Position numbers and translations under genes: made by a program. A stretch of DNA of 53,876 bases, filler included, from Jimgerdemannia flammicorona (Eukaryota), in the NCBI GenBank assembly GCA_003990765.1. It is 3 parts of 3 records of this genome, joined end to end, with 100 filler letters (N's around TTAATTAATTAA, not from the genome) between each part and the next. Parts side by side here need not be neighbours in the genome. Positions count along the whole stretch, not along the records: positions 1 to 17,893 come from RBNJ01002371.1; 2 more parts are not named here. The stretch is one strand, 5' to 3'. Positions within the stretch are counted from its first letter, which is position 1. Each line of letters starts with the position of its first letter. Of this stretch, positions 1-22,721 are shown one piece after another. The notes beneath the pieces were generated by a model, which saw only the letters and a program-made list of their open reading frames with translations, was not told where the DNA came from and made no database searches.

Positions 1-498
1 CCATTTAATCTAGGCTAGTTATTGTCTAGCAGCTTGATTATATCAGACACAGCAGAGCCTAAAGTGACCTATATCTCATTCTATACACCATACTCTCCCT
101 ACTACCAAAGAGAACTCAGCCATATATCAATGATCAAAAGTATATACTCAAAACTCCAACATATATATAAGACCATACTTGAGTCAAATAGAAAAGCCCC
201 TACCACCTCAAGGAGAATGATAGATAAAGAAAAAATTCTCATCAAAGTACATTATAGTAGATAGAACCTGGTTCTTCCAGTTAAGGTGAGTAAAGAACTT
301 ATATATGAGATGAGAGGAGACCCCCAATACCCCACTCCTCAAGTCTATAGGCCTCAATCATATTGCTATATCAGCTTCTAGTTTCAGTTGAGTATAGTTA
401 AGATGTCTAAAATAGATAGCCTTGGGCCCTCTGATCCCCCCCAATGACTAGAGCCTAACCTTATAAATTACCAAAAAAAGCTATAAGTGATACCTACT
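1..498 (-). mobile_element. Fragment of polyA retroposon family C (same family as 3709-4873)
   Basis: Aligns by eye to ~3815-4310 with mostly transition differences; abuts the Gypsy RNase H remnant. Confidence 0.8.
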
Positions 499-2110
499 AT
501 ATATCTACCTAGAGTTCATCCTGTAGATAGATATAAGTACTATAGGACTTGGAGCAGTTCTAGCTCAGAAGAAAGATAGATATAAATATATCATCTCTTA
601 TATAAGCTGAGATATTTGTAGAGCAGAACAAATCTATAAGTTATGCAAGCTTGAATACTTGGCAGTAGTTTGGATAGTAGACAAGTTCCACTACTATCTA
701 GCTGGGAAACACTTCTCTATTCAAACAGACCATTCTACTCTTGTCTGGCTATTCTATATACTAAACCCTAAAGGAATATATGCCAGATAGATCTACATGC
801 TGTAAGAGTATGATTATACTATCAAGCACTGCTCAGAGAGAACTAACACCAATGCTGATATACTTTCAAGGACACCTTGAAATACCTCCATCAAGACTAT
901 TCAATATGAATAAGAAGTTATACTATAAATTAATCAGCTATCTTAGACAGCAGAAGATGCCCAATCACCTCAAACCCTGGACAATCACTATTATCAACTA
1001 GACTTAGAAATAATTTGAACTAGATAACACTATACTCAGAAAAGGAGAAAAGCTTATAATATCTGAATATAAAAAGTATCAAGTAATAAAGGAAGTACAT
1101 GAATAAGGATACCTAGAAGAAATCAATACATATATATAATAAGGTAAGAAGAACTATATAGTAGCCCAAGATGGAAGAAGACCTGTACCAATTTGTCAAA
1201 GGGTGTAATAAGTATCAAAAACAGAAACAAGATCAGTAAGATCAGATATCTAAGTTATCAAGAATTCAGTCTATCCCCTTCTATTACATTATAATAGATA
1301 TCATTGGGCCACTACCAGTAACACTATCAGGAAACTACTACATTATAGTTATTGTAGACCTCTTTACTAAATAGATAGAAGCAGGAGTATTACAAGAAGC
1401 CAATGCCCTCTCTATAGCTGACTTCCTATACTGAGAAATCATCTGCCACTACAAGACACCAAGGCAAATCACCACAGATCACAGTATGGAATTTTTCAAT
1501 GGATTCTATGAGATAATATATCAGAAATATAAGATTCAGTACATTAAGATCACTAATATCACCAATATCACCCTCAAGAAAATGGACAGATAGAGAGAAT
1601 CAACAAGACTCTCAAGAACATCCTGGCAAAGATCTCAGACATATATGAGAATTAGGATAACTATCTCCCAACTGCCCTCTCTGTTCTATAAGATATATGA
1701 TCACAGAGTACACACTTTACCCCAAGAGAACTGCTCTTCAGAGAAGAAGATTCTGATAGAACTTTAACCACAAATCTAGACCTAACTTGGAGATAGGTTG
1801 ACTCAGAAATCCAGAGACTATACCAAATCAGAAAGAAGGCTGAAGATTACATCATCAAGTCATAAGTACTGATAAAGAAGAATATAGAAAAAAATTACAA
1901 GACCCTAGAACCCATCCAAATTAAAGAAAAGGTCCTACTGTATCAAAATATAGTAGAAGTCTCATGGTTATGAAAACTGGAGTCCAAATAGGAAGAACTC
2001 TTCTATGTGCAAGATATCAAGGAAACTACCTTCTGGCTTAGAAAAATCTCAGAGACTATACTGCCTACTACAGTACATAGAAACAGACTCAAGAAGTACC
2101 ATAAACCTAT
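499..2110 (+). pseudogene. Ty3/Gypsy pol remnant (RNase H + integrase) of element A
   Basis: FIL*IDISTIGLGAVLAQ (~515); LEYLAVVWIVDKFHYYLAGKHFSIQTDHSTLVWL (650); IDIIGPLPVTLSGNYYIIVIVDLFTK (~1295); YHPQENGQIERINKTLKNILAK (~1567); HRNRLKKY (~2076); many stops and frameshifts. Confidence 0.93.
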
Positions 2111-2634
2111 ATAAGAGAAGTAAAATATAATAATTACCTATGAGGTTCTAGTCCATGAATTGTAACAGTATGTCCTATGACTAGTAGGCAATCTGTCTGG
2201 ACCATTCTCTAAGAGATACAGCACCAGCAACTACTTATCCATGAGACTTTTGAAGCCAGAGAAGTTTGAACTATCAACTGATTAGTTAAGATCAGAATCA
2301 GGCCCTTGCTCTATATAAAGGAAGTGACCCTTCACCATCATGTCAAAATATATAGAGAAGATGCCAGTCTATAAATACCACTTTTTGACTCCCTACTAGA
2401 GGTTATGAGATCAGCAAATTTTTCAGGACTGGACCAATAAATAAGGATGTTCAAAAAGATTCTTATTCAGGAGAAAGATGTAACAGTGACCTCAAAATGA
2501 TAATATCAATACAGAAGACAGCCTTCCTTACAAGTCACCAGATCAGAGTACAAGAAGATTATATGATATAACTCATCTAGGCTACCAGATGAGCAATGAT
2601 GACCAACTGTGAGTTATTATAACCACAGTACAGG

Positions 2635-5289
2635 TATAAGTATACAATCTCCAAGCCACCAAAATCATATGTCATCCTTAGAACTAATTTGGAAACCATA
2701 TGTGAGACTATAAAACAAGTTACTGAAGAGATTACCTAGTTACACAAAATATGCCAGCAAGCATGAGAACCTACTGCCAAGATACAAGAATACCAGAAGA
2801 AGTACTATAACCATAAGACTAACCCTGAACTACTATAACTAGTTTTAGTATACCATACTATTACAAAAGAAAACTGAAGTACCAAACTCAAACTAGGATG
2901 AGAAGAACCCTATCTCATCTATCAAAGGTTCATGAACTATACTTATTAACTCAAGACTAAGATACACTGCAACTATATAAAGACCTCATTACTTAGTAGA
3001 AGCAAAATGTATTTGAACAACCCTATTTGCTCTATCTGTATTACCTCTGTTAGAGAATGATGGATGCTTTATCTGAACTCAAGAAAGCCAACATTGTTGA
3101 AACCAATCTCAAGCCCATCCACATGATAGATATGACTATTAGAAATTGTCTTAGATTATAGAAAATATCATTTCTGAGAGGTTTGAACCTCCAGCCATAA
3201 CATTGGGAGCCCTTGCCCTAGACAAGAATGGCCAGTCCTCATAAATATACCAGCAGTCCAAAAAAAAAAGAGAACCAAGACCTATTATCCTTATATAACC
3301 ACTATAGCCTTAATCTTATAAGAGATAGAGATGATAATACCTTTGAAACTAATGATGTTAGAAGTCAGAAAACTGCTCAGAAATAATATCATCAATAGTA
3401 ATATCATTAAAGACTACTCAGATAGCATCTAAATCTATAAATAGCTTAGCAGTCATAGTATAGTTATATTAGCCTTATATAACATAACTGTGAACTGACT
3501 TAGCAGTCAGATAATTCCTTAATATATCAGATCATACTTATATTATGTTACTGTATTCTGACTCAGCAAGGTACTAAGTACTATATTCATATTTAGTCTA
3601 GTCCAGATAGCCTCTCACTAGTATAAATACCCCCTCTTCCAGACCTTAAAATCTTAGACTCAAATATACAAGAATATTCCTGAATACTTCTCTACAATAT
3701 TCTTTCATTTTTTTATTTTATTTTATAGACTCAGAGTCCAGCAGATTTTTATTAGAAGGGAACCTAGACTATATAGACCAAAACTCTCTCCTACTACTCA
3801 TCAAGTACTGCCCCCCTATTAACCTAGGCTAGCTATTGTCCAGCAGCTTGACCATACCAGATACAGTAGGACCTATGGTGGCCTATACCTCATTCTACAC
3901 ACCATACTCTTCCTACCACCAGGGAGAACCCAGCCATATACCAATAACCAAAAGTGTATACCCAAGACCCCAATGTATGTACAAGACTATGCCTGAGCTG
4001 AATAGAATAGTCCCTACCACTCCAAAGAGAACAACAGGTAAAGAAAAACTCTCATCAGAGTATATCACAGTAGATAGAGCCTGGTTCTTCCAGTCAAGGT
4101 GAGTAAAGAACTTATATATGAGATGAGAGGAGACCCCCAATACTCTACTACTCAAGTCTGTGGGCCTCAATCACATTGCCATATCAGCTTTTGGTTCTAG
4201 TTAAGTACAGTCAAGATACCTGAAATGGGTAGCCTTGGGCCCCCCAATCCCCTCCAATGATCAGGGCCCAACCCACTAAATTACCAAAAGAAGCTAAGAG
4301 TAATACCTACCACCTAACCACTTCATACCAATCAAAAGGCCCCACCAAAACAGCATCTACCCCAGCCCCAATGACTGCCCCCAGCCTAGCATCCTACTGG
4401 TTCACTATAATCACTCTTTCTCCTATCTGTGACAGCCATCTCTTCTCCCATTTACCTATGCCAGAACTACACTTACCAGAAAGCTCACCAAAGCCAGAGG
4501 GCTCCACCATAGGCATTGAGGATCTGCAGGTAATCTATACTGGGCACTTGATGCCTAAGATTGGCTAACTCTCTATATAACCCATAATATACCAAGACAG
4601 TATCTTATTAGTAATGACAAAAGGAAGAAAGTGCCACACCAAAACAGATATACTCCAGATATAGCCAAAGATACCAGAAACTGTGAAAAAGTGGAGAAGA
4701 CACTGATTGGACACCAATAAAGGGGCAACTCATCACCACTGCCTCCCTCTCACTACTCTACAATAGATACAGCAAACCAACCTGAGGTAGAGGGGGTAAT
4801 AATTGTAGAAAGTAGACTTGGAAGGTTGTCTACTAAATCATTATGACTAGTAAGGTAGCAGAGAAAGAGACTGTACAATATTCCTTCATATAACTACTTC
4901 TAGTATAGCAATATTATGAATAACAAATAAATCTATTTAATAACCCACAAACTATTCTTAAGTAAATTTGCTCTCTGTTAGATCTCACTCTTAACTCTAT
5001 TACAAAATTTCCTAATTAGGTATTGTCTGCAGCAATATGCCAATTCAACTAAGCTGGTCTTAGTTTCTTGAACTTCCTGAAATACAGAAAATCCTGAATA
5101 TCCAGAAATAGTCCAAATAAGGACTTTGGTTGAGATATCAACCCAATCTTAAAATCAATAAGTGTAGAGGATATACTCTATATGAAATTGATCTTGATCT
5201 TAAGAAAACAGTCTTCCAGAATATCCAGAACTTCCAGAAAACCCTTTTAGAACTACATAATAGTTACCTTAACAAGTAACCCTCTTACA
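2635..5289 (+). repeat. 5' LTR of element B (interrupted by retroposon C)
   Basis: 2635-3708 plus 4890-5289 align to 8657-10142. Confidence 0.9.
3709..4873 (-). mobile_element. Polyadenylated non-LTR retroposon, family C (~1.17 kb)
   Basis: 16-bp TSD TACAATATTC(T/C)TTCAT at 3693-3708 and 4874-4889; T-rich tail at ~3708-3726 with AATAAA upstream on the minus strand; absent from the 3' LTR copy. Confidence 0.88.
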
Positions 5290-6169
5290 ACTTGGTAACA
5301 GTAGTTTACAATCCAATTCTGCTTCAAGACACTTTCTCACCCCACTACAAACCTCTCTGAGAATTTCTACAAGTTGGTATAAAGCCCAACCTCTGAACTA
5401 GAATTTATCCTGAACTATCTGACAATCTGGAGAGAATTGAATCTGATATATAAGGAAAATTTGACCTCTATACCTGTAATAAGTGGGACAGACTTCATTC
5501 AAAGAAAGAAGTACTCTAATTAAATCAGCAGATAGGTGAAACCCTATACACCAAACTCCTTGCTCTACACCCTGTAAGTCAAGATGAAGAAGGTCTTATA
5601 GAAGTCTTCTTTACTCTTCTCAATAAGAGTTTTATCAGCTCCACAAATCTGAGTGACTTAGGATAACTAGCAGCAGTCTTTCTAGTCTTAGTTCCTCATG
5701 AAGTCCAAGCCTCCATAGCCAAGTAGCTCAACTCTACCAACTTTCACTGTACCAGAACCAAGACCACATTATACTACCAATTTCAGAATAGTAAGACCTA
5801 CTATATTCTTAAGGAAGAAGCAAGACAAACCCTTCATCAACAATCTGACTCTGAACCAGAAGCAGGCTCTGCTATAGCTCTACCTGAACCTAAAACCAAT
5901 ACTAAACCAGAACTTGACTTTGAATTAAGTCTATCTGAAATCAGATATATAACTAACTCTGTCTACTTCAATGCTAAATAAATCCAACTATATGGAAACC
6001 AAGCTGAAGAAGAGGAGGAGTATCTTAGTGAATTCAATCCTGGATATACCACAAAGGAGATGCACCTCTATCAGGACAGAACACACCTATACAGCAACAA
6101 ATAGCTAATTATTGAGCCCTTACTCCAGACCCATAACTACTACTCCAGTAATTTATACAGACTCAAAGA

Positions 6170-7215
6170 ACACCCTCACATTCTGCACTAGTACCTCAAG
6201 TAGTACTGATAATACTACTACCAGTAGTCCAATCATCTCTAGCAAATAATATAGCAAACCAACAGATTCTAGATCTCACAGCCCAGGTAGCCATAATGGT
6301 AGCAACCATTACTGCCTTAGCTGAACAGACCCAACCTATCAAAAATCTGAGCCTACCTATCTTCAATAGTACTGCACAAGAAGTCCAAAGCTTCATTAGT
6401 ATAGTTAATACCAACTTTGAAGCCAATCAATAAACCAATGAGTGAGTTGCTGACTGCTTTCTGATAAATGATCAAGATCACACTCTGGAACAACTCTTTG
6501 CTGCTACTACAGCCTATATTCATCAAGTTGTTACATTCTTCTGAGAACCTGCTGAAGAATAATAGCAAACCCTTTCTGAAAAACCCCTCACATAGGACAC
6601 TTGACCTGCAATTGTTACCCAGAATACAGCAAATAATGCCCCAGAATATGGAGCCCATCCTGTAACTCCTGGACTCAAACAACTCATGATTACTGAATCT
6701 TAAGTCAAACTCCATAATCTCAAATTTGATATATATGGCAAGGAAGAATTTGAAACCTTCTATACAAAACTTAAGTTACTCCTGAATACTATTGGCCTAG
6801 AATATATTGCCAATGATGAAGTATGAAATAGTACAAGAGCAGACCATCTATTTAATGTACTATCTGAATGGCTTATAAGAAAAATCTGAGAACAAGGATA
6901 CTCAGTTAGTTGTGATTACCAACAATAGTGCCTGGTAAGAATCAAGACTATAGTTAAGTGAATTCTGACAACTGGACCAATTCTGCCTCAAAGACAATTC
7001 AACAATAAGAAAAAGACTTGGACTAAGAAAGAAGAACCCAAGTATGAAGCATCCTGAGCTCTCTTTATATCCATCTCTTGGATACCCTGAAATCATAAAC
7101 CTACCCAGCCAAGTACCTTCAAGAAACTCACTGAAGGAGAAAGAAATGAACTTTGAAGAAGCAGAGTATACTTCTATGCTGAAAGATAGGACACATAGCC
7201 AGTGCCTACCCTAAC
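6170..7215 (+). pseudogene. gag remnant of element B
   Basis: Broken frame with LPIFNSTAQEVQSFISIVNTNF and a decayed zinc knuckle YFY..KIGHIASAYP (~7168-7210), upstream of dUTPase and protease. Confidence 0.6.
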
Positions 7216-7289
7216 TAAAAACTCTGAACAGCAATATGAGCAACTGTTACTACTCTATACCATCTCAACAATCTGACTATCAAGACATT

Positions 7290-7700
7290 GAACTTTGTCA
7301 AGTTAAGGCAAACTACCAAGGCCCCAATCAAAGGAAGTCAAAAGACAGCTGGATACATATGACCTATATGCAGTTGAAGAAGCTATAGTTTCCAACTGAG
7401 AAGTCAAGCAAGTCTATACAAGAATTAGCATCCAAATCCCTGAAGGACATGTTGGAAGAATATGCTATTGCAGCAGCCTAGTATTGAAAGGACTCTCAGT
7501 AGAAGGAGGAGTTATTGATAAAGATTACATAGGTGAAATTATTGTCCTCATCCAAAATCATAGTTGGACATCCTTCAAGATCCCTATTGGTTTCTGTATT
7601 GTACAGATTCTATTTGAGAAAATCAAATCAACCCTGATAGTTAAGGAAGTCCCTGAACTACTACTCACTATCCAAGGATCCAAAGGATTTGACTCATCAA
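7290..7700 (+). pseudogene. dUTPase domain of element B (decayed)
   Basis: TAGY/DLYA, ISIQIPEGHVGRI..SSL..KGLSVEGGVIDKDYIGEIIVLIQN, GFCIVQILF, TIQGSKGFDSS match the trimeric dUTPase motifs. Confidence 0.88.
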
Positions 7701-7929
7701 ACAAGGCTCCAGCCCAACTTACTATGAGCAAAAAAGAACAATTCTATAAGAAAATTGAAGATAGATATATACTCAGTGGCCAATACTCCCATGGTATTAG
7801 AATGTACTCTTCTCAAATGATTGGTGATTACTTCTTTTGTGTCAATGAACTGGCTCAAAGAAGAACTAACAGAAGAAAAGCTCTTACAATTAAAATCATC
7901 ACTATTAGATCAGACAAACTACTTACACT

Positions 7930-8260
7930 TCAAGCTTTTGTCAACTGAGTATCTGTCAAGATTATGATAGACAGTAGTGTCTCAGGCAACTTTATCAATA
8001 AAGAAACAGCCACAGACTCAAGGTCCTGATATCTCTGGTACAACAAACTCAAGCAGTTGCTATAGCTAATGGAACCTTTTATGTCATTAGCAAGGAAGTC
8101 CACAACCTGCCCTTCTGAATTGGTAACTACCAAGTACATATTACCCTCTAGATCATACCACTTCCTGATAATGAAATCATCCTTGGAACCCTATGGTTAA
8201 AATAAGAGAACCCTATAATTGATTGGGTAAACCATTCTCTGATCATCAAGAAAAGACATC
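7930..8260 (+). pseudogene. Aspartic protease remnant of element B
   Basis: KIMIDSSVSGNFIN (decayed DSGA) at ~7958 and ILGTLWLK*ENPIIDW at ~8180. Confidence 0.8.
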
Positions 8261-8529
8261 ACAACTTCAAACTGTAAGGTAAAAAAGACTCACTCAGCTC
8301 TAGTAACTCTGGACCAAAGATCACCCATATAAACAAGCTACAGCTCAAGAAATTGGCCAAGAAATGCTCTCTTTTTGCCATCTCCATCCACCCATCCAAA
8401 GGAGAATCTGAGAACTCTGAAGAAGACTTTTCCAAAGTTGACAGCTATATTAGACCCTTACTCTAGAAAGTCTAAGATACAATTCTGAACTGAACTACAA
8501 AACCACCTATACCTGTTATTATTAATAAC

Positions 8530-8625
8530 TAAGAAGAATATAAATTTGAATAAATTCTCAACAAACATAGCCACAAGAACCATCCAAATGGTACAACAAT
8601 ACTAGATCAAATTAGAAGGCCTCAA
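8530..8625 (+). pseudogene. Chromodomain remnant just upstream of the PPT
   Basis: EEYKFE*ILNKH...QQY*IKLEG resembles EEYEVEKILDHR...YLVKWKG. Confidence 0.55.
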
Positions 8626-8656
8626 TGAGGATATCAAAAGCTAAAAAGGAGAGAGT

Positions 8657-10142
8657 TGTAAGCACACAACCTCCAAGCCACCAAAATCGCATATTATCCT
8701 CAAAACTAATTTGGAAACCACATATGAGACTACAAAACAAGTTACTGAAGAGATCACCTAGTTATATAAAATTTACTAGCAAGCACAAGAACTTACTACT
8801 AAGATACAAGAATACCAGAAGAAGTACTATAACCACAAGACTGACCCTGAACTACTACAACTAGTTTTGGTATACTGTACTATTATAAAAGGAAACTGAA
8901 GTATCAAACTCAAACCAGGATAAGAAGAACTCTATCTCATCTATCAAAGATTCATGAACTGTACTTATTAACTCAAGACTAAGATACACCACAACTATAC
9001 AAAGACCTCATTACTTAGTAGAAATAAAATACATTTGAATAACCCCATTCACTTTATCTGTATCATTTCTATTGAAGAATGACAGATGTTTCATCTGAAC
9101 TCAAGAAAGCTGACATTGTTGAAACCAATCTCAAGCCCATCTATGTGATAGATATTACTACTAGAAATTGCCTCAAATTACAGAAAATATCATTTCTGAG
9201 AAGTTTGAACCCTCAGCCATGACATTGGGAGCCCTCATCCTAGATAAAGATAGCCAGTCCTTACAAATATGCTAGTAGTCCAAAAAAAAAAAAAAGAACC
9301 AAGACCTGTTATTCTTATACAACTATCACTACCAAGGACAGCCTTAATCTTACAAGAGATAGAGATGATGATACCTTTGAAACTGATGATGTCAGAAGTC
9401 AGAAAATTGCTCAGAGATGATGTCATCAATAGTGATATCATCAAAGACTACCCAGACAGCATCTAAATCTATAGATAGCTTAGCAGTCATAGTATAGTTA
9501 GATTAGCCTTATAAAATGTGACTGTAAACTAACTCAGCAGTTAGATGATCTCTTGATATGTCAGATTACACTTATAATATGACTATATTCTAACTCAGCA
9601 AGATACTAAGTACTATATCTATATTCAGTCTAGTCCAGATAGCCTCTCACTAGTATAAATACCCCCTCCCCTGGACCTCAAAATCTCAGACTCAAATACA
9701 TAAGAACATTCCTGAATACTTCTTCACAATATTCCTTACACAACTACTTCTAGTATAACAATATCATAATAATAAATAAACCTATTTAATAACTCACAAA
9801 CTACTCTTAAGTAAATCTGCTCTCTATTAGGTCCCACTCCTAACCCTATTACATATGAAATTTCCTAATTAGGTATTGTCTGCAGTGATATGCTAATTCA
9901 ACTAAGCTAGTCTTAGTTTTTTGAACTTTCTGAAATACAGAAAATCCTAAATATCCAGAAATAGTCCAAATAAGGACTTTGGTTGAGATATTAATTTAAT
10001 CTTGAAATCAATAAGCATAGAGGATATACTCTATATGAAATTGATCTTGACCTTAAGAAAATAGTCTTCCAGAATATCCAGAACTTCTAGAAAATCCTTT
10101 CAGAACTATATAATGGTTATCCTAATAAGTAATCCTCTTATA
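8657..10142 (+). repeat. 3' LTR of element B
   Basis: TGTAAG start after the PPT; CTTATA end followed by TSD ACAGG; TATA-like GTATAAATACCCC at ~9653. Confidence 0.92.
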
Positions 10143-11699
10143 ACAGGCATCTTGAGGAATATAAAAGAAAGACTAAAGAACTGTAGTAGCAGTAACTCAA
10201 TAAGACCCACCAATTCCAAAATAGCTCAAAGACTTACTATAAATAAAATGCTTACTACTTACCAAATCTCAAGGTCAAGGAACTATTAAGATATCTCAGT
10301 CAAAGAAAGGATGTTCTAAGATATCTGAAGAGCCATAAGAACCTACACTATAAGGACTCCTAGTGTCAACCTGGGTACCAGGAATCCTTATTATTTTATT
10401 CTCTACCATTATGAAATAGAAATAAGGATCACCATTACTACTAAATATCTCCAAATATAGCAGGAGTACAAAATAAGAAACCTTCTCTACCAGAAGTTCC
10501 TACAGGCCAGTCCTCAAGAGTTACAAGATGCCACTTCTATGGATATATAAAACAAGGATAGCTAAGAAGATTCATCAGATCTTCAGACATGTACTATGGT
10601 CAATCTCCAACTTGGAGTATGTTAGAGTCTCAGACTTCAAAGATCTGTCAGCCTGCTATATCAATGCACTAGAAGCCAGAGTGGCTACAGAAGTCCAGTC
10701 TACTATCACCCTCAATAGTGATGAAGTAGAAGACTTCTGATATCTCATCCTCCAGGATAACTCAGATCAATTCCTGCAAGAATTGATCTCAGTATTTTAA
10801 GGCCCAAGCATCCAGGTTAGATCTTCCCAAGACCCTATATTTGTTTCTTATTTTGTAGAAGAGAACCTCATAGACTGGAGAGCCCCAGATCTCCTCACTC
10901 TCTCTACTGCTGCCAAACATGATAATGTTATCAGTGATGATATCATCTTATATAATATATACAAACTATATGATATATATATGCAAAATGAGCAATCTAT
11001 GATGAGACTGAAATATTCATAGATCTCATCTCCTTTAGTAATAATGAAGATAAAGCCTCTATAGTTCTGAACATTCTGCTCTAAGTCCCTTGGTTATACT
11101 GAATTATACCAGCATTCTTTTCCTGTGTAACAGCTGTTCCTCTACTGGTATTCTGATCTTGTGTAACTTAGAATTATTTCAGCACTCTTTTTCTATATTA
11201 TTAAAATTATACCAGCATCCTGAATATCTATGCCAATACTAAAACTTAGTAGTTTTCTATATTCTAGTATTTTATTTAGTTATTGGAATTTATATTTAGC
11301 TTTATATCTTAACAACTATTGAATTATATTTTGTATAAATACCCCTCTTATTTCCTTCAAAATAAAGTCAGTCTACTTAGTATAATATATACAATTCCTT
11401 GTAAGCAATCTAAAGAGATAATAAGATAGTTTAAAGATAAGAAGTTTGAGAACTATAAGACTTTGAGAAGGTACTTCAATAAGAACTTACTTATAACAAA
11501 CTTGAGTTAGTCTAAGAGATATATATATCTTGAAGAGAATCTGATATATTTGAAATTCTTAGTGACTACTATATAACAATATATATGTATATATATATAT
11601 TCACATTTATGTTTATGAATATATCTATGAATATTTTCTCTTATGTTCTTCTGTTTATATATATAAGTGAATTATATGATAAGTTTCATTTGTTTATAG

Positions 11700-11978
11700 A
11701 ATTCAAATCAGATGATTCAAATCCAGCTAAGATTTAAATTCAGTGATTCAAATTCAGTAATTTAAATTTAGTAATTCAAATCTAATGACTCAAATCACTA
11801 GTTTGGAGGTTTAGATCAGAGTACTTACAATTTAAACTGATTTGAATTAATCATATAATGAATTTGAACTAATTCTAATCAGTTTGAATTGATCATATGA
11901 TTAATTTGAATCAGTTCAAATCAGGAATAGTCACAATTTAAACTGGTTCAAACTGACTCATTCAAAGCACTACCCCTA
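11700..11978. repeat. AT-rich short-motif repeat (ATTCAAAT/TTTGAA), possibly the decayed subterminal region of a DNA transposon
   Basis: ~13-bp periodic GATTCAAATTCAGT units and inverted TTTGAA/TTCAAA motifs ending in CACTACCCCTA. Confidence 0.4.
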
Positions 11979-11979
11979 G

Positions 11980-12643
11980 GTATTAGATAGTGTGGTGGTA
12001 GTTCTTGAGAAATAATGTAATGTTAAACTACCAGACAGACTAGATGGCAGTCAATGGGTGCTGGGATTGTGAATGGTGTGCTGAGATCTCTGGAGAGATA
12101 GTTCAGACTCCAGAATATATCTTGGTGGTCTGTCCTAGAGTGGAAGGTTTTTGGCAGACTTTAGAGAAATACTGAGGATCTAAGAGAGGGCAGCTGGGGG
12201 ATTTGGTCAGTGTGGTCATCTGGAGAAGACTGATAGGGGAAATTGGTGATATTTGGGGTAGTGTTGGGTGGATCTTAAGAGTATAGATCTTGATGGCATC
12301 ATACTGGTAGTAGGTTTTTGAGAGTAAACATTGGATGAGAATTGGGGACTTAGTGGAGCAATAGTGTTGACTTCTGAGAGAGATAGTGCAAGGGTGGTGG
12401 TACCAAGGGAGGTGGCAGGAGTTAGGGGTAGCAAAGAAGATATAGGATATTGTCTTAGAGAGTCAGGGTCATTTGGTACTAGGTGAGGGTGGGGTACAGT
12501 GGAAAATTGGTATGGGTTGATGAGTCCTTAAGGGTTTGGTGGACTCTTTTTGGAGTGTGGCTGTGGGTGGTCAATGGGATTTGTAAATTGTTTAATGTTC
12601 TTATAGATTGGTTATGGGGTGCTAGGCTTCTTCTACCTTGTTG

Positions 12644-12681
<38 letters not shown>
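11980..12681 (+). mobile_element. 3' end of a LINE (ORF2 C-terminal zinc knuckle, 3' UTR, (AAT)12 tail)
   Basis: DCEWCAEISGEIVQTPEYILVVCPRVEGFWQ at ~12065 is a decayed CxxC..ET..H....C motif; G-rich strand; (AAT)12 at 12646-12681. Confidence 0.75.
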
Positions 12682-13064
12682 CTGCATGTTCCTCAACACT
12701 AACAGAGCTCATTCGAAGCCTGCTCTCTTTTGTGTTGGAAAATTTTGATGGGGATTGAAAAAAGAGGGTGAGAGATAGAGTCTTACGTATTCGCGTATCC
12801 CTTATACTCTTTTGGCTCGAAATTGATGGACCTGGCCGAATGTCATCCCCGTTCCGAATAAACCAGCATGCAGCAACTTCCGTCGAAAAGAAGTTATCGA
12901 GTGTTGACATTGACGTTATGAACCAAATTGTATGCACCTTAGTGTGCGGCTAGTTTCCGTTGCTATTTGACAATGCTATTTATCGGAACCAACTGATTCA
13001 AGTTCGGAAGCGCAAAGAGCCACGTTTTCTTATCGGCAACGACAAACCTAAAGTTATTAGAGGA

Positions 13065-13204
13065 TTCAAAGTTGACTAATGGTTAGTTGCTATGGTGATT
13101 TCAAGGTTGACTAATGGTTAGTTGCTATGGTGATTTCAAGGTTGACTAATGGTTAGTTGCTATGGTGATTTCAAGGTTGACAAATGGTTGGTTGCTACGG
13201 TTAT
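13065..13204. repeat. 35-bp minisatellite x4
   Basis: TTCAAGGTTGACTAATGGTTAGTTGCTATGGTGAT in tandem with no spacers. Confidence 0.95.
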
Positions 13205-14356
13205 TTGAACTTCGCCCGAGGCCGCCTCGAGCCACATTAGGCCAAGGGGCGATCATCAGCCGGATAGTGCAGCGACTGGTGGCTATTAAACGTTGAGTCA
13301 AAACAAACTTTCACGGATACGTGCAAATCAGAGCTCCACCTACTCTGCGTAATTTTAAGAGACAGCATGCATGCAATAAATGGGGTTCCAAAACTGAGGT
13401 CCTTGCCTCCTTTAGACAAAGTTCATCAATAATAGAATACTTTTGAATAAAAAGTAAAGTTTTTAAAATGCATATGAATAAATCTGGTACAACATTTTGT
13501 GTGATCTGTGTAAGATGTGTCTTGTCTCATAGTTGCGACACGAAATCGCCACGTCCAGGGTGCGGAGATGGTCGGTCAATGCATTCGAACATGCGAAAAG
13601 GTATCGGGTAGTAAGATGAAAGACATTTGTTTATTGGACACCATCGCTTACACTATACTCCTGACTCCGATTTCTGGGTTCTGGGTATGTTGCATTTTCT
13701 AACAATTTATGCAAAACTAATGAGCAACAATACCTCGCTGCACCCAGCTCTGAGGTAACACCTTACAATAATCCAAATCTTGTTCGTCTCCCAATCGCGA
13801 CCAACCCGCTCACCAGCACGCCCGTCACACCCTACCTTGCAACACGATCTCTTTTTTTTTTTTTTAACCTTGCAACACGATCTCACGGAACTGAAGGCGA
13901 CTGTTGCAATATTGAGAATAGGTGGCAACAAATGTGATCATTGGTTCTGTACTCCCTTAATGTAGTCTTGTTCTGTACAGACGTTCGGGTAGTAAATAAA
14001 AATGGTATTTGTGTGGTGTCACTAATCAAATCTGGATCGTTAAAGGAGGCTCATAGTGAGGTTCTCTTTACCCTTTTGTACCAATGGCCATTGTGTATAG
14101 CCTAATCGGGAATGGCATTTCCTATTGGAGAGCCGACCGGCACAGCCACAATCGGGAGGTGCTCTGCCGTCTATGTATACTTATATAACTGACCGATTTC
14201 TTTTCGAACAAAGATTCGGACTTCCCAAACTCGTGTCCTCACATCACCCATTATTAACCAGATTTTATAACCCCGTGTCCTAACAAATAACCGAACAACA
14301 AAACAAGCACCAAGACAACAGACATCTCTTTCTTGTTTTAGCGACACATCCTCATC

Positions 14357-17300
14357 ATGTCAACCGCCCAAGAACCCGACCAAATCCCAACCCTATCGGT
14401 TTCTCAAATTTCAAACTCGGCGGTATCCACCCCGGAGTCCCGCTCCGCCACCATCGGCAACGCGCTGAGGTTTTCCGGCAGCCGCCACTCGCTCCTCCTG
14501 CAATCCCCCCCCGACGCCAGTGGCAACACTAGCGTGAACAGCCTGTCCGAAGAGAAATATGCGGATCGCCAGTCGGTGCGCCTCCTCGACTCCGAGGCGA
14601 CATTGAAGACCTCTGACGAAAATAACGGGGGGTTGTTGAAACTGGAGGCATTGCAGAAGGAAGAAGTTGGGTCTGTGGTGATTAAGGAGGGAGTCGATTG
14701 CGAGGCGGCAAACGAATCAGTCGAATTGACCGACCAGACGAGAATTTTTCCACCAATGATGTTGATGTTGGTGTTCACGGGGTAAGCTTTTGGTACGCCA
14801 TGTGGTTTGTCATTGACATTCTTTCCTTTTTTTGAAACGAAGTTTCATTCAAGAACTAAACAAATCTACGCTGATTTTTTTTTTTTGTTTTTGTTTTTTT
14901 TTTTTTTCGCTTTTTAAATACAACTCTCAGTGTCATGTTCAGGTATCGTTATAATTTCACATATAATCTCGCCTTTGCCCGAAATTCAATGACCTTCCAT
15001 TTTCCGCCCGTGTTCACTTTTCATAAACTCCACATAACAGCTACTTCATGGCCGGCTTAGATGGCACCATCATCGCCTCTGCCATTCCCAAAATCTCTAG
15101 CGAATACAACTCTTTGAACGACGCTCCATGGGTACGTATTCAAATCCATTTTCATTTTCATCCCAAAGACACCCATGCAACCACTCATTACTCACTTCCC
15201 TCTTTACCTATCCTTCCCCTATCCAGATCGCCACCAGCTACCTCATCTCCAGCAACGCCTGCCAGGCGACCTTCGGCAAGCTCTCCGACATCTTCGGTCG
15301 TCGTCCCACCGTCATCTTCGCCATCGTGGCGTTCCTCGTCGGCTGCGCTGTCTGTGCCTCGGCCTCAAATTTCGCGACCGTCGTCGCTGGACGCGTGATC
15401 TCGGGCATCGGCGGTGGTGGTGAGTTGCTAGATAACTGTTATGCGGTTTATTGTTTCATGCGATATTTTGACTCATCATTATGAAACAAATAGGCATTCT
15501 CGCGATGACGTTGGTGCTGATTAGCGACGTGGTACCGATGAAGCAGAGGGCGAAGTTTCAAGGGTAAGTTATTGACTGAGCGTTGTTCTTCGCTATCAGC
15601 CAACAATTTTCTGATTCCTTTCTCGTTTCCTATTTCCTATAAATCTCAGAATTTCGGCTGCCGTCTTTGGTCTCTCGAGCGCTATCGGCCCAGTGCTGGG
15701 TGGTAAGTTTTTTTTTTTTTTAAAAAAAAAAAAACCTCCATTACCATAAATTTGGAGAAATTTGTACTTATCCATTTCACTTCCTATGCCGTCAATTTTC
15801 CCAAACATCAGGCGTCCTCACCGACAGCCTAGGCTGGCGATGGTACGTACATCCTCCACGTTTTTCTTTTGTTACGCCAAAGCCCCCTTCACTTTCCATC
15901 CTCTAACACTCCCACTCTCGTCCCCTACCAGGATCTTCTGGATCAACCTCCCCTTCGGCGCCGTGAGTCTGGTCACTGTCGCCATGCTCCTGCGTCTCCC
16001 CAAGGTTCATGGTTCGCTGCAGCAAAAGCTTTACCGCATCGACTATGCTGGCATCACGCTGATGGGCGCGTGTACAACTTTCCTCCTGTTGGCAATCAAC
16101 TATGGCGGCAACGAGTACACCTGGGATAGCCGTATGTATTCTTTATCCCATCTTGTTTTAGTATCTAGTTCGCTTCTCATCACCCCCCACTTCCGCACAC
16201 AGCCTTTGTCATCTCCTGCTTCTGGGCCAGCCTGGTGTGCTTCATCGGCTTCCTGTACGTCGAGCACCATAAGGCAATCGAGCCCGTGATCCCCCTGCGC
16301 CTCTTCCGCAACCGCTGGGTGGTAGCCGTCTGCCTCGGCAACTTTATGGTCGCCTGGGTTATGTTCAGCCAGATGCTATACCTACCGCTCCTGTTCCAGG
16401 TCGTTTACGGCGATAGCCCCACCGTTTCCGGCGAGAAGCTCGTGCCCATGATGGGTATGTCGAAACTCCTTCCTTTACTTTACTCACCTCTTCTGAGACG
16501 CCGCCGCTCACGTCGCCCCTTTCTTTCCCACATAGGCGGACTCGTCGTCTTCGCCATCATCGGCGGCATCTTACTCACCCGCTACGGCCACCCGAGCCGA
16601 TTCATGACGGTTGGCGCGCTGATCCTGACAATCGGCACAGTCCTCACCTCCCTTTTCGACCAGAACACTGGGCTAGCCCGTGAGTACGGCTCAATGATCG
16701 TCGTCGGCGCCGGGCTGGGACTAAACATCGCACCGTCTACTATCGCCGTGCAGGCCAAGGTCGCGCAGCAGGGTAAGTGTTAACGAGAATATGGGTTCTG
16801 ATGCTTTATAGAAACAGAAAAACTAATTATTGGTTATTGGGTTTGAATTAGATGTCGCCGTTGCCACCGCCGTCTCGTCCTTCTTCCGATTGTTCGGCGC
16901 CGCGTTTGGTATCGCCGTTTTTGGAACCATTCATCAGAATGTGGTATGTAAAATGGAGTTATTAAGCTGATTTGCCAACCCATGATCCGAACCTGGAACG
17001 ACAAATTTCCTAACCCCACCCCCCCCTCCTAAACCAGCTCGGCAACAAGCTCTCGACAATCTTGCCTCCGGGTCTCGTAAGTCTACAAGTCTACATCTAC
17101 ATCGCACGACCATCTTAAAACCCACCCGTCCATCTTTACTCATAGTCTTCCCTCTCCCCTCTACCGCACTTTCCAGCTTTCCGGAGCCAAGGCGGACATC
17201 GACAACATCTCGCTCCTTCCGCTGCAGCTCCGCACAGAGGTTATTAACGCGTACGTCGAGTCAATCCAGCTCAACGTCCGCATCCTGATCGGCGTGGCTG

Positions 17301-17365
17301 CGCTATGTACTCTATTCATCGCCGCGACGGTTGGGTGGGACAGGTCGCTCGGGAAAAGGAACTAA
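14357..17365 (+). CDS. MFS drug:H+ antiporter (DHA2/14-TMS type), ~627 aa, 13 exons
   Basis: Exons 14357-14781, 14931-14942, 15041-15131, 15227-15419, 15494-15563, 15650-15702, 15812-15842, 15932-16131, 16203-16454, 16536-16772, 16852-16943, 17038-17076, 17177-17365; all introns GT-AG and the joined frame is open; motifs LDGTIIASAIP, GKLSDIFGRR, GRVISGIGGGG, GWRWIFWINLP, IDYAG, EPVIPLRLF. Confidence 0.93.
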
Positions 17366-17893
17366 GAAATGAAATGGTGTCGAATAATCTTGTATAATAA
17401 CTTTTACAATTTGATTTTTCAGGTCGAGATGGGAGTTTGTGGTGTTTCGGCGGTCCGACAGAGTTATATTTACATTTTATTTCCTTTGTTTTTATTTCAT
17501 TTTGCTGCAAAAAATATGTTCAATGAACTGCGTATGGGCTACCATTAAAGATATTCTAATCGTATATCCACTTGATGCCAGCGCCATTTTTTCTATGATA
17601 CGCTCCCTTATTATTTCCCCGCATTTCCACTAGTAGCTTCCACCAAACAATAATAAAGAATGAGCATATTAAATTGTTGCTCTCAAAACCGCGCACATCA
17701 CGCCTCATGCCTTTGAAACATGCTATACGGAAAATGTGACAGCCTTCCAACCGAGAACGCATTCTTGTTATCCATACCACGACTACGTCTCATTTCGTCT
17801 CATCTATGCGAAAACGACCACATTCGCCTTCTACCCCTTTTATGAATAGTGGAAAGAGTGCCTTCTTCTGTGAGGTTTTTTTTTTTTTTTTTT

Positions 17894-17993
17894 NNNNNNN
17901 NNNNNNNNNNNNNNNNNNNNNNNNNNNNNNNNNNNNNTTAATTAATTAANNNNNNNNNNNNNNNNNNNNNNNNNNNNNNNNNNNNNNNNNNNN
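17894..17993. other. Artificial contig linker (N44-TTAATTAATTAA-N44)
   Basis: Six-frame stop cassette within Ns, identical to 35886-35985. Confidence 0.97.
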
Positions 17994-18132
<139 letters not shown>

Positions 18133-18163
18133 ACAAACAAGTACAAATACTCAATCCGCCTGT

Positions 18164-18724
18164 CTACCATTTGCCAGGATCCTGACGTCTAAATAAGCAT
18201 TTTGTCTCAATTCCAATATGTTTTGTTTGAGAAAGTCTGGAGCCAGTATCCCTTATCGTTACTTCCACCTGCAATCTTTCATCAACATCGTGAACAAACT
18301 TGATTGATTTTATCATCATAAGAGTCGTTAGTGACAGCCACAGGTTCGCGTCGCGACCATGTAGCGCGCTTGTAACGCGGACACTCAAAGGCCTATTCCC
18401 AACGGAGCTTGTGCCCGATAGCGACGATATCGTCGACGACAAGGATGTCGTGGAAGAGGACGACAGAGGTGTCAAAAGACCTAGTACTGTTGTCTGGAAG
18501 TCATTGTTCAAGGCTGAGCTGTGGCCGTTGTCTCGTATATCTCTAATGTTCACTAGCTGTGTCGCTTGTACAGCTCCCTCTTGGGGAAATTGGTGTCAAA
18601 GTTCACAGCCTGGTTGGGGTGCTGGTGCTGCGGCCTCGTGGGCTGGGGGTAGGTATAGCTGGTCTTCTTCGTTCTCGAAATCTAACTGGTAAGGTTTTTG
18701 GTGATAGACTTCGTTTCGGTTCAT
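18164..18724 (-). pseudogene. Unknown ~186-codon frame with one internal TGA (pseudogene or spliced gene fragment)
   Basis: ORFs 18596-18817 and 18164-18553 share a frame separated only by TGA 18596-18598; ATG at 18724; TATA-like element at ~18835. Confidence 0.35.
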
Positions 18725-20386
18725 CCGGGCCGAGCATATAATTGAAGGGAGGAGGGGGAGGGGGGTGAATGAACAGAAGGAACAGAAGAGATGTTTGTAC
18801 AAAAAGGTTCGGACCAATGGCAGTCCCCAGATATAAATATGCTGCGGCCTTTAGTTTTCAGGGCTTGACCGGCGAAAAATAGTGCAACATTCCATTCATT
18901 TGTGCGATCCTGGCAAGCGACAGCCCACTCTCTAAGAGATTGAATCCGAAAAGACTATATTGGCCTTGGTACGGCCTCCTTTTTTAGGACTACAATAAAT
19001 ACAGCATGGTGGAGGTCGTAAGTGGGCCTCAATAGCAATTTAATCCCAGCACATTCGGCATTAGTATCACCGAGATTCAGATCCTGCCGTTCTGAATCCT
19101 GTGGCCATCGCATAAAAACCAGATCAAGTAGCCATTTACGGTGCGGTGTAGTGTGAAGCGGCCCCTCCCAGGTGACCCGCCATTTAAATGTGTCGGCGGC
19201 GCCTACCGTGACCCTATTTACAGCAGAAAGACCCAAGTTAATACCTAGGCCAACAAAAGCTCACGTAATTGAAAATTGGTGGGTGTTAATTTACTGATAT
19301 AGGTCAACGTCCGTGCTCACCTGGTGTGTATGCAACGTGGAAAATAGAGTTATTCCGTGATCTCGGACACGTATATACACGCTCACACATCGGCCAGGGC
19401 GGTTCAATGTACGATCCGTAATAGCTGACTACATACATCTCGGTTTGCATGTGTGAAAATCACCCATCGTGACTAAGGCCCGAATCGCAGTAACCGCAGT
19501 TGTAGCAAAACACTAACAGGCCCAGTGACAAAGTGAGACAGGCGAAATCCGTTCGGGATCACATAGAGTCTGTGCAGGCATTCAGATCACTGGCAGCGAA
19601 GAGGAAATACGATATTCGAAGGACTTGTAGGCAGAACGGCCAGTCGTGAGGGCTCGTCTCCATCGATAACATTGAAACTCAGCTTCGGAATGTACTGCGG
19701 TCCTACAAGTGCACTTACTGCTATCAAGATACTGAAAGGTCCGCTACAAGCCCGCTTACTGCAAAGGCAAGGCTCATTGAGAGACAGCACATATAAGCTG
19801 GCCACTTTTAAAATGTTACCTCTGGTGGTTTAGTATGACTCAAAAAACAGGAAGAAAGTAACTTTTTTAAAAGTGCCGAGCAGCGGACGCAGCGGACCTG
19901 CTGGAACAACAGCTGACATGAGTCTTCTGGAGGCCCAGACTCATTCCAATGTCGTTTCAAAGTTTGACATGCGTAATCGACCGCCGTAAGTATGAATCAG
20001 GATGGGATGGCAGTACCCCAGAATGGGGATGTGGGTGCCTGCCTGGCCTGCCGACTTTGTCGCTTGCTAGAAATGGAACTCGGGCCCAGCTGTGCATTGG
20101 CTTGACGTACACGATTCTAAAAAAGGATGTCGATGGATATCACCAACTTTAAAAGAGTGACGCGGTGGATCATCCACTTCCGCAATCTTCAACAAATACG
20201 GCAGCAAAACTGTCATTACGCTGGAAACCGGGCATTTGCGATAGGATGCGGAGTCAGTGGCGATGCCCATAACAGTGGTAGTCCTATATAGGATTTGGTA
20301 ATTGGTCACATGACATGTACCACATTGCTACCCTGAATTTATTAAACCAGAGAGGGCTGGACGTTTCTTCATTCGTCAAAGCCAGA

Positions 20387-21334
20387 ATGGGCCAACGTCT
20401 CTCCCAACCCCACAGAAGACCCTCCACAGAGAGCAAGGCTGTAGCACCTCTCCCAAAATCAGACGTAACTGTGCCAGAAGGTTTCAAGTGGGTCGACGGT
20501 CGCGGGTTCAAAGTAGGCGGTAATCCGACTTACCCCTTGCCAAACGATCTCTACGAAACCAACCGGCTTAACCTTCAGCATTACCTTATCCGTCTTGTGT
20601 TCTCCGGCTACTTCATGTCTCCCGTAAAGGAGCATCTTGAACGCGGGATTAAAGTCCTCGACGTTGGATGTGGCACTGGCATCTGGTCCGTAGAATGCGC
20701 AGCGCAATACCCCGCCAGCGACTTCATTGGGACGGACATAGTCGACGCCTTCAGCAGAACAGCCCCAAGCGCACCAGAAAACTGTCGATTCGAGCTCGCG
20801 GACACGCTCAAGGGCCTCCCGTTCCCAGACGGCAGCTTTGACTTTGTTTTCCAGCGGATGCAGCTCAGCTCGTTCCGCGAGGATGAATGGCCCACCGTCA
20901 TCACCGAACTTGTCAGGGTCGTCTGTCCGGGCGGCTGGATTGAGCTAGTCGACATGGACGGTTGGTTGTACGGGGCTGGTCCGAAAACGACGGAATTCTG
21001 CACCAAACTGCGTACCGTCCTCAAGATGCGTGGCATCGTCCCCAGTATCGTCAGGGAGGTCGGTGGCATGCTCGAGGCTACCGGCATCGAGGATGTGGTC
21101 CACGACCACCGGTCCATACCCGTCGGATGGGGCCCTGCCGAGGTTGCGGTGCCTTCGACTAAAAACCTCGTCGCGTTCTTCGAGTCTATGAAGCCCACGA
21201 TGTTGTTGGTCCTTGGAATTCCGGAACTGGAGTACGACACCCTAATCGGCGAGGCGTCAGAGGAGCTGAACACATACCAGACTTACTGGAATATAGATTA
21301 CGCTTTTGGGCGAAAGCCGTTAAGTACGGAATGA
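20387..21334 (+). CDS. Class I SAM-dependent methyltransferase (LaeA/Methyltransf_23/25-like), intronless
   Basis: YPLPNDLYETNRLNLQH, VLDVGCGTGIW (motif I), GLPFPDGSFDFVFQR, ELVRVVCPGGWIELVD; the ORF opens at 20315, with likely start MGQRLS at 20387 downstream of TATATA at ~20285. Confidence 0.92.
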   Translation: MGQRLSQPHRRPSTESKAVAPLPKSDVTVPEGFKWVDGRGFKVGGNPTYPLPNDLYETNRLNLQHYLIRLVFSGYFMSPVKEHLERGIKVLDVGCGTGIWSVECAAQYPASDFIGTDIVDAFSRTAPSAPENCRFELADTLKGLPFPDGSFDFVFQRMQLSSFREDEWPTVITELVRVVCPGGWIELVDMDGWLYGAGPKTTEFCTKLRTVLKMRGIVPSIVREVGGMLEATGIEDVVHDHRSIPVGWGPAEVAVPSTKNLVAFFESMKPTMLLVLGIPELEYDTLIGEASEELNTYQTYWNIDYAFGRKPLSTE

Positions 21335-21992
21335 TAGCTAAGTACGGAGTGATAGACCTACACCAGTTTCTGTTAACATTCAAAGGAATGCTAGTAGCTG
21401 TAGCCTTAGACTCGTAGCAATGAGCATCGCATCATTGGTTTTTATTGTGTTCCCTGCAAAATTTCTAATCGAGACACTCGATTTGTGCTTGATACTTTGT
21501 CTACAATACCATAATATGCTAAAATTAGTGTTTTTTTTATCCTTTGAGACGTCCATAATTCTAGAATGTATATATATATTCTTTATTGCAGCCATTTATG
21601 CACTCGAAGAAGAATTTTTCTCCGCTATGACCCAAAGATAGATCATTGATCTTATTTTATTTATTTATTCTATTTTTTTACGATCGATTTTTTTCTTCTT
21701 AAATAACAGAGTGAACATAAGCGCGAACCACGGTCCTGGCCATCCATTGAAAAACTAAGAGGCCATCGCATGTAAATGACGCATAGCAATGAATACAAAG
21801 CAAGATGTGTGCACGACCCATTTTGCGAGACTGACATATGTTGCTTGCGCCAATTGATCCCGACCTTTTCGCATTTGGTTGGTCGTGGATACATACGATA
21901 CGATGGTCGATTTTTATTTTTATTTCTATTTCCCTGTTACGATTGACGGAAATGCGTGAGCAGGATGGTTCCAACGTCGGGAAGGTGGCCAG

Positions 21993-22314
21993 CAGGGATC
22001 CCAGATGGCTGGCCATATGGCCAATGGCTGGCCAGGGTGGCTTGGCTTTAAATTTACAGCCAACTGGCCAAGTGGCTCGGCCTTAAATTTAGCCTGGCCA
22101 GCTAGCCAATCTATAAATTTAAGGTCGAGCCACCCTATCTTGGCCTTAAATTTACAGCCAACTGGTCAAGTGGCATTTTATTTAATTTGGAAAATTTGAA
22201 ATTCAAAACTGCCAAATAAGGCCTGGCCACTTGCCCAACTAGCCAATCCATAAATTTAAGGCTGAGCCACCCTGGCCAGCCATTGGCCATATGGCCAGCC
22301 ATCTGGGATCCCTA
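21993..22314. mobile_element. hAT-superfamily MITE (322 bp)
   Basis: ~50-bp near-perfect TIRs starting CAGGGATCCCAGATGGCTGGCC; perfect 8-bp TSD GTGGCCAG at 21985-21992 and 22315-22322; internal CCTTAAATTTA subrepeats. Confidence 0.92.
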
Positions 22315-22721
22315 GTGGCCAGTACTATGACGACCAAGTTGAGGAGTTTGGGGAAAATATGCAATCGGATGTAACGGGGGACGCATAGTTGGATCAAGAA
22401 GCGATTGGGGATTTCGCTCGATGCAGACTTGGGTATTGATACGATCACCGAATCGAGACGACTCGTAGGTCGGTCATGTTCACACGTCTAAAATTCTGAA
22501 GCTCAGATTAAGAATTCAATATGCAGTAGACTATGAAAGTGACCGCATGCGATCTCTAATGATCCAGTATCTGATCTCTGTACAATGTTGTCAACAACAG
22601 AAACCCGTGTAATTATGTCATGGAGAAAGGCAACAAAATGGAATATTATTTTATGGGAAAAAGTCCGGCAGCTCAAACCATAACAAATACACTGAATGTG
22701 TACACAACGCCCGCCCATCTT

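Follow-up and report, generated by a model that had tools for sequence, protein, structure and literature searches.

We found that the transposons of a 53,876-nucleotide stretch of the Jimgerdemannia flammicorona genome (assembly GCA_003990765.1; this whole stretch is referred to as the window) have undergone C-to-T change with the target hierarchy CpG >> CpA > CpC >> CpT, and that this change is confined to the transposons. The process is of a known kind and is here extended to a new lineage, with a combined CG, CA and CC signature. J. flammicorona belongs to Endogonales within Mucoromycotina, which agrees with the placement outside Dikarya and in Mucoromycota guessed in a first-pass annotation of the same DNA. 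In line with this, a 419-aa kinase frame (27330–28589, minus strand) is 100% identical over the matched part to a J. flammicorona protein and has seven further matches in the same species, and the protein-atlas match of a methyltransferase frame near the kinase points to Mucoromycota. The explanation that we judge probable, if well short of assured, is that 5-methylcytosine (5mC) was confined to transposons, where it covered CG completely but CA and CC only in part, and that its deamination accumulated in place.

The contrast in CpG content between repeats and genes is nearly absolute, as the first-pass annotation had stated, and lies well outside what chance would give. Positions 1–12713 contain a single CpG (at 8688) where 394.7 are expected from base counts, and the second repeat block (31263–46200) contains 18 where 326.7 are expected, whereas the gene block (12714–31262), which includes methyltransferase, MFS and ankyrin genes as well as tandem kinase paralogues, recognised with Pfam, contains 1055 against 1044.6 expected. 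The sharp boundaries placed by that annotation at ~12.7 kb and ~31270 are also real: the first CpGs flanking the repeat blocks lie at 12714 and 31262, ~10–30 bp from the visible repeat ends. An (AAT)n run at 12646–12681 marks the left edge of the CpG-free domain, and a switch in composition at ~31265–31270 marks the right edge. The contrast is independent of GC content, because windows of equal GC differ between the two kinds of block; in 300-bp windows at GC 0.20–0.40, the observed/expected (o/e) ratio of CpG is 1.13–1.30 in the gene block (92 CpG in 2400 bp) and 0.00–0.04 in the repeat blocks. Non-coding low-GC DNA between the genes likewise has a CpG o/e above 1. An open reading frame across the left boundary (12482–12949, minus strand) had neither a Pfam match nor a homologue and was treated as not a gene.

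Paired copies of repeats differ mostly by transitions. The transition/transversion ratio is 4.3–23.7 across seven repeat pairs, against 2.9 in one pair of gene paralogues. For pooled counts we used six pairs chosen so that each part of the window enters at most once; the pairs c1/c2 and c3/c4 (P5 and P6) of family B, a family of ~1.2-kb long terminal repeats (LTRs), were excluded because they reuse copies c2 and c4. The six pairs together show 729 transitions and 86 transversions in 4533 aligned columns (ratio 8.5), among them 48 double sites of type CA/TG and 2 of type CG/TA. The LTR examples given in the first-pass annotation (TGTAAG/TATAAG, CTTACA/CTTATA and CACAC/TATAC) are all present.

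Sequence context was counted at sites with identical flanks, as a C/T difference between the copies. Such differences were identified at 247 of 488 CpA, 103 of 263 CpC and 66 of 519 CpT sites (51%, 39% and 13%, respectively). The excess of CpA over CpT (odds ratio [OR] 7.0, p = 7e-40) appears in all six pairs, CpC also exceeds CpT (OR 4.4, p = 2e-16), and CpA exceeds CpC by a smaller factor (OR 1.6, p = 0.003). Expressed per copy, the rates are 0.41 for CpA, 0.28 for CpC and 0.07 for CpT, or 5.9 : 4.0 : 1, and we calculate that CpG sites change at least ~45 times as fast as CpT sites and ~8 times as fast as CpA sites. The transposon-restricted C-to-T change at CpG and CpA that had been claimed for this DNA is therefore confirmed, with CpG wholly hit and CpA raised about six-fold over CpT and, to a lesser degree, over CpC. 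Among trinucleotides, ApCpA is hit most often (94 of 132; OR 3.3 versus other NCA, p = 3e-8). CTN is low throughout (0.10–0.14), and CTG is not raised (8 of 84), which rules out a symmetry of the CHG type. CpT/ApG has an o/e of 1.3–1.65 in the repeat blocks versus 0.91 in genes; the surviving cytosines are therefore those that precede T. The 3′ base thus sets the mutation rate, as expected for DNA methyltransferases.

The polarity of the change was established with two outgroups, a protein relative and soil-metagenome contigs, and runs from G:C to A:T. The relative, P0040, is a 537-aa JGI protein in which a dUTPase, a protease and a reverse transcriptase follow one another; it is 77–81% identical to element A, an LTR retroelement at 2636–10143, and is the less decayed of the two. 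The alignment contains 261 identical and 74 different residues; G:C>A:T change in the window codon alone suffices for 63 of the differences and A:T>G:C alone for 4, the remaining 7 being of other kinds. All seven in-frame stops aligned to P0040 sit at its R or Q codons, and the 3′ base of the C>T events inferred from this comparison is A in 33, C in 13, G in 12 and T in 7. The second outgroup came from a soil-metagenome run that shares 5% of the window's words, the one sequencing run identified with such a match, no RNA run being among the matches listed. It yielded 6081 contigs at least 80% like the window, of which 402, 1290, 2696 and 1693 fall into the classes of 99% and above, 95–99%, 90–95% and below 90%, respectively. 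Among the 945 places with a variant, 885 show transitions, the window carrying T/A at 612 and C/G at 273. Among the 40 rows listed of these 945, the window has T/A against every contig in 30 and the reverse in 3, and 7 are transversions. Because the metagenome may contain J. flammicorona itself or a relative, this second test of polarity is not fully independent. Its almost absent cover on 12475–17800 was not used as evidence. That a soil sample contains thousands of short contigs 80–99% like the retroelements of 1–11880 also means that the same or related element families are present in that soil.

Element A further shows that the change happened in situ, after insertion. The element lies within an older element, C, is flanked by a perfect target-site duplication (ACAGG) and has the LTR ends TGTAAG…CTTACA. 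Its two LTRs are 189 transitions and 37 transversions apart, including 13 CA/TG double sites, and a single CpG survives in them. Because the change runs from G:C to A:T, a CA/TG double can only have arisen from a CpG that was hit on one strand in one copy and on the opposite strand in the other; since the LTRs were identical at insertion, the CpGs at these 13 sites were present then and were lost later in both copies. It is conceivable that nothing was targeted at all, and that elements already poor in CpG on arrival drifted under an unremarkable AT-biased mutation spectrum. Pre-depleted arrival would account trivially for the sharp edges, and a young element with open frames (49900–53876) is already 84% CpG-depleted, which implies that active lineages carry few CpGs. 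However, the 48 CA/TG doubles, 13 of which belong to the genuine LTR pair of element A, record CpGs lost after insertion, and the six-fold CpA/CpT gap and transition/transversion ratio of 8.5 of the transposons stand against a ratio of 3.0 and no bias in paralogous genes. The CpG-replete low-GC non-coding DNA between the genes also runs counter to such drift, which the LTR-pair data already largely refute and which we consider quite improbable. A reading in which an AID/APOBEC-like deaminase edited retroelement cDNA as it was being reverse-transcribed is less credible again, to the point of being highly improbable. Retroelements are indeed the targets, and one of them encodes a dUTPase, an enzyme tied to uracil in DNA, but the LTR pairs diverged after integration and the two strands of each copy carry about equal numbers of hits. 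Moreover, the rate here is set by the 3′ neighbour, whereas APOBEC-type enzymes read the 5′ neighbour.

CpG loss does not account for the CpA-to-TpA change. In the family B alignment (columns with at least three copies), 120 columns have TA with only CA or only TG, versus 32 with both CA and TG, and at most 16 of the 120 are estimated as expected from CpG sites. Similarly, LTR segment 1 of element A has 80 CA/TA differences versus 10 CA/TG doubles; by arithmetic, an origin of all 80 from CpG would need ~180 ancestral CpGs in 1081 bp, three times the density of the gene block. The blocks also reveal the order of events: CpG was lost first, and the CpA/TpG pool then drained into TpA. The young element represents the early stage, with 34 CpG versus 209.5 expected (84% lost; o/e 0.16), a CpA/TpG o/e of 1.35 (1.05 in genes), a gene-like TpA of 0.70 and long open frames. 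The old blocks have CpA/TpG of ~1.0 or lower, TpA of 1.04–1.21 and GC down to 0.20. The graded erosion described in the first-pass annotation thus stands as block statistics only (GC from 0.51 to 0.20; CpG o/e 0.85, 0.32, 0.16 and 0); for the LTR D that it placed at the intact end of the series, the window contains no second copy, and its identity was not confirmed.

Several of these features would also suit a true system of the repeat-induced point mutation (RIP) kind, in which repeats recognised by homology are mutated in bursts, probably premeiotically, by a DNMT-like or deaminase activity. The decay is by transitions only, stops arise from CAA, CAG and CGA codons, the CpA bias is strong and the CpG loss is extreme. 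The classical RIP indices have the thresholds TpA/ApT > 0.89 (product), (CpA+TpG)/(ApC+GpT) < 1.03 (substrate) and composite > 0. Family B at 31405–34435 and the block 34436–35885 pass all three, with composite RIP indices of +0.18 and +0.32, respectively; 1–12700 passes on the product index (1.06) and fails on the substrate (1.17) and composite (−0.11) indices. Classical RIP is RID-dependent and premeiotic and mutates any duplicate, genes included, of a few hundred bp and ~80% identity or more. Nevertheless, the tandem kinase paralogues of the gene block (27371–29170 and 29725–30926, minus strand), which lie 2 kb apart and are 81–86% identical in pieces of 30–738 bp, retain their CpGs (76 conserved, 20 differing). 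They differ by 70 transitions and 23 transversions (ratio 3.0), without any bias by context (CpA 13/116, CpC 5/76, CpT 13/99); the same kinase family has several further paralogues in the species. Permutation tests (20, on four pairs) revealed no grouping of mutations by copy or by strand (lowest p 0.031, the rest 0.14–0.99), where strand runs could be hidden by many superimposed rounds of mutation, and the flanks show no visible spill-over.

The window shares with the classical RIP of Neurospora and other Pezizomycotina the C:G to T:A transitions, the CpA preference, the nonsense codons and the AT-rich relics. It differs from it in the target order, which in classical RIP is CpA > CpT > CpG > CpC, in the sparing of gene duplicates, in the lack of strand runs and in the negative composite index of 1–12.7 kb. 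Because CpC is raised as well as CpA, the pattern is not that of classical RIP. The label of RIP-like given in the first-pass annotation therefore fits only loosely: transposon-confined C-to-T change at CpG and CpA is as described, whereas the near-parity of CpC (39%) with CpA (51%), CpG as the prime target, the failed substrate and composite indices, the spared paralogues and the lack of clustering do not belong to it. In the literature, RIP of Aspergillus is described with CpG plus CpA targeting, which favours a system of this kind (PMC4352252). Against it, the J. flammicorona genome is reported as 77% repeats (PMC10386755), and RID, together with DNMT5, is given as lost in the sister Mucoromycota of the arbuscular mycorrhizal fungi, which themselves have DNMT1, 2 and 5, DIM-2 and RID (PMC8298701, citing Bewick 2019). 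Overall, we regard a true RIP-like system as unlikely.

We favour methylation-coupled decay as the process by which a nest of dead LTR retroelements (1–12.7 kb and 31.3–46 kb) was mutated where it sits. Cytosine-5 methylation would be aimed at transposon chromatin. A maintenance enzyme of the DNMT1 type would keep CG almost fully methylated, and an enzyme of the DIM-2 type would methylate CA and CC in part. The 5mC would then deaminate to T, site by site over time, and would not be triggered by sequence duplication. The confinement, the polarity, the context hierarchy, the in situ origin and the lack of clustering are observed, whereas we infer the 5mC intermediate and the enzymes involved from the footprint; the deamination may be either spontaneous or enzyme-promoted. 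Two marks of decay through 5mC were identified in the window, namely CpG depletion limited to transposons irrespective of GC and a TpG/CpA surplus, the latter in the young element and in the 48 CA/TG doubles. The old blocks are without this surplus because further CA-to-TA change erased it.

Decay by 5mC deamination in Basidiomycota, Tuber and vertebrates shares with the window the transposon-limited CpG loss, the CpG-normal genes and the TpG/CpA surplus of young elements (PMC4352252, PMC3318451). It is passive and time-dependent, which we take to be the case here also. Unlike the accounts of CpG-only species in the same sources, the loss in the window is total (1 of 395 expected) and comes with a strong CpA and CpC component. 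For this component, the transposon methylation laid down by Dim2 in Zymoseptoria offers a parallel, with 43–61% at CG, 10–22% at CA, 3–8% at CC and <0.01% at CT (PMC8016269). The preference CG > CA > CC >> CT equals the mutation hierarchy of the window, and both are confined to transposons; this match is a resemblance and not proof of the enzyme. In Z. tritici, Dim2 also raises C>T change in transposons during mitosis, at CA and not at CG, a process termed mitotic RIP-like (PMC8016269). The Dim2 precedent comes from an ascomycete, and the window from an Endogonales fungus. More generally, Masc2/DNMT1-type enzymes are associated with CpG signatures and RID with CpA/CpT signatures (PMC4352252), and Phycomyces, also of Mucoromycotina, has one DNMT1 and one Dim-2 (PMC7862722).

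Several points weigh against this interpretation. The evidence amounts to 4.5 kb of aligned pairs from one window, and the gene-paralogue control is under selection. The 5mC and the DNMT genes ascribed to J. flammicorona are deduced from mutations. A CpG loss at least ~45 times that at CpT suggests that there may be room for an active enzymatic step, vertebrate 5mC decay being less extreme than this. Early-diverging fungi are described in a review as 5mC-poor (PMC13297926). Finally, the Dim2-linked mutations of Zymoseptoria occur at CA, and its CG sites are methylated yet unmutated, whereas CG is the first and complete casualty in the window (PMC8016269). A hypermutation of Endogonales aimed at heterochromatin and driven by enzymes of the DIM-2/DNMT1 type, which would deaminate CG, CA and CC during vegetative growth, is possible in our view but doubtful. 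If true, it would be the non-Dikarya counterpart of RIP, and methyltransferase-coupled mutational defence would predate Dikarya.

The TpCpG hypermutation of Pucciniomycotina resembles the pattern in being CpG-centred, in affecting transposons and in occurring in a fungus without known RID (PMC3318451). Unlike it, the window shows no TpCpG preference and its non-CpG sites are hit as well. Surviving CG/(CG+TG) in 49900–53876 is 0.06, 0.07, 0.11 and 0.17 after A, C, G and T, respectively, and in the partly depleted element at 46200–48800 it is similarly low after A and highest after G, these counts being small (9–27 per class). Among related fungi, the transposon-rich mycorrhizal Glomeromycotina, a sister group, have bimodal methylation, with heavily CpG-methylated transposons and low methylation of most genes, as described for Rhizophagus (PMC8647823) and Gigaspora (PMC13443276); methylation itself is reported there, whereas the evidence here is a mutational footprint. 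With this precedent and the Dim2 hierarchy of Zymoseptoria, the suggestion of the first-pass annotation that the defence might be a distinct one lacks support. Its statement that RIP is not established in the group agrees with an account of RIP signatures as undetected in Gigaspora or Mucoromycotina (excerpt of PMC8647823, citing Venice 2020). We found no publication on hypermutation of the RIP-like or CpG kind in either Endogonales or Mucoromycotina, for which bioRxiv supplements, Bewick 2019 and Venice 2020 could be relevant; neither Jimgerdemannia nor Endogone is mentioned in the supplements of PMC10538959.

Early-diverging fungi are usually called 5mC-poor and RIP-free (PMC13297926, PMC8647823), and a window from Endogonales carries a clean transposon-only footprint whose context hierarchy is methyltransferase-like. 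If the pattern is genome-wide, strong CG plus non-CG cytosine methylation would have acted in the J. flammicorona lineage. Standard RIP indices would then overlook it, since lost CpGs replenish the pool of CpA/TpG, and the footprint would be a cheap, sequence-only marker of past methylation in mycorrhizal fungi that are uncultured. The footprint also raises the testable question of whether methylation-coupled mutation of transposons existed before Dikarya.

Self-comparison and the reading of junctions resolve 1–12.7 kb into nested LTR retroelements, all on the plus strand unless stated. A partial family B copy, c1 (1–500), is cut by the window start, lacks CpG and is 82% identical to 3819–4310. 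It is followed by the left part of element C (500–2635), an old Ty3/gypsy-like element without CpG that has an RT_RNaseH match at 611–787 (Pfam, E 6e-14) and is interrupted by element A. The right part of element C (10149–11601) is 78.5% identical to 44857–43405 (minus strand), and the segments 2479–2612 and 10155–11601 are contiguous in a second copy at 45010–43405 (minus strand). Between these parts, the junctions carry the two copies of ACAGG, at 2631–2635 and 10144–10148. The 5′ LTR of element A is in two segments. Segment 1 (2636–3701) is 85.8% identical to 8659–9737 and starts with TATAAGTATAC, where the 3′ LTR has TGTAAGCACAC; segment 2 (4875–5291) is 89% identical to 9726–10144 and ends with CTTACA, where the 3′ LTR has CTTATA. 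They are separated by a solo LTR of family B, c2 (3702–4874; GC 0.43, no CpG), with a repeated CAATATT on both sides. The 3′ LTR (8657–10143) carries the sole CpG of the block (8688).

The internal region of element A (5292–8656) contains a primer-binding-site-like TGGTAACAG, a dUTPase (7400–7945; Pfam, E 4e-18), an aspartic protease directly downstream (~8005–8478; tblastn with P0040) and a polypurine tract. Its in-frame stops are many, with 64 in one frame. Reverse transcriptase, RNase H and integrase are missing from it, by Pfam on stop-to-stop pieces and by tblastn of P0040, and it is therefore an internally deleted copy. The Pfam search of the decayed DNA covered 47 of the 79 stop-to-stop pieces listed; those outside it lie in the LTR stretches 2580–5276 and 8615–9995 or are the four minus-strand pieces 105–251, 211–357, 7561–7743 and 7700–7909. 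The dUTPase frame, at 182 codons, is the longest open frame in the otherwise stop-riddled 12.7 kb. Nine metagenome loci that match this frame at 33–42% identity are ordinary dUTPases and were rejected as element copies.

Downstream of element C lie an AT-rich relic without CpG (11602–11974), with short inverted repeats at 11830–11921, and a G-rich, C-poor, CpG-free block (11975–12640; GC 0.44, GC skew +0.56) that has no second copy within the window and no Pfam match; the (AAT)n microsatellite (12646–12681) then borders the CpG-free domain. A plus strand that is G-rich and C-poor with no matching T excess recurs at 34436–35885 (skew +0.45) and 49900–53876 (+0.45), and may reflect either native composition or a strand-biased loss of C.

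The second CpG-poor transposon block (31263–46200) contains four family B copies (31405–34435) and the second copy of element C (43400–45010). Family B thus has five partial copies besides c2, at 1–500 and 31.4–34.4 kb. A palindrome of 538 bp in perfect register (33145–33682) is built from family B LTR sequence, and its arms are 82% complementary. The arms differ by 46 transitions and 4 transversions and show the CA versus TG (8 sites) and CG versus TA (2 sites) differences cited in the first-pass annotation. Nothing in 45.9–53.9 kb has a second copy in the window. The younger retroelement (49900–53876, plus strand; GC 0.51) has a reverse transcriptase at 52793–53875. Between CpG-poor repeat blocks, 48800–49900 forms a CpG-normal island (52 CpG, o/e 0.85, GC 0.48) with a 172-aa frame (48916–49434, minus strand) that has no Pfam match; it may be a fragment of a host gene or an unmethylated element. 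Paired 44-base N runs at 17894–17993, in the gene block, and 35886–35985, in the second repeat block, look like scaffold gaps.

Within the gene block, about six tandem units of 63 bp, 90–96% identical, were identified at 24511–24916, inside a 726-aa frame (23113–25293, minus strand) with a weak ankyrin match. The kinase paralogues found elsewhere in J. flammicorona are 37–70% identical, which indicates an expanded family, as in arbuscular mycorrhizal fungi.

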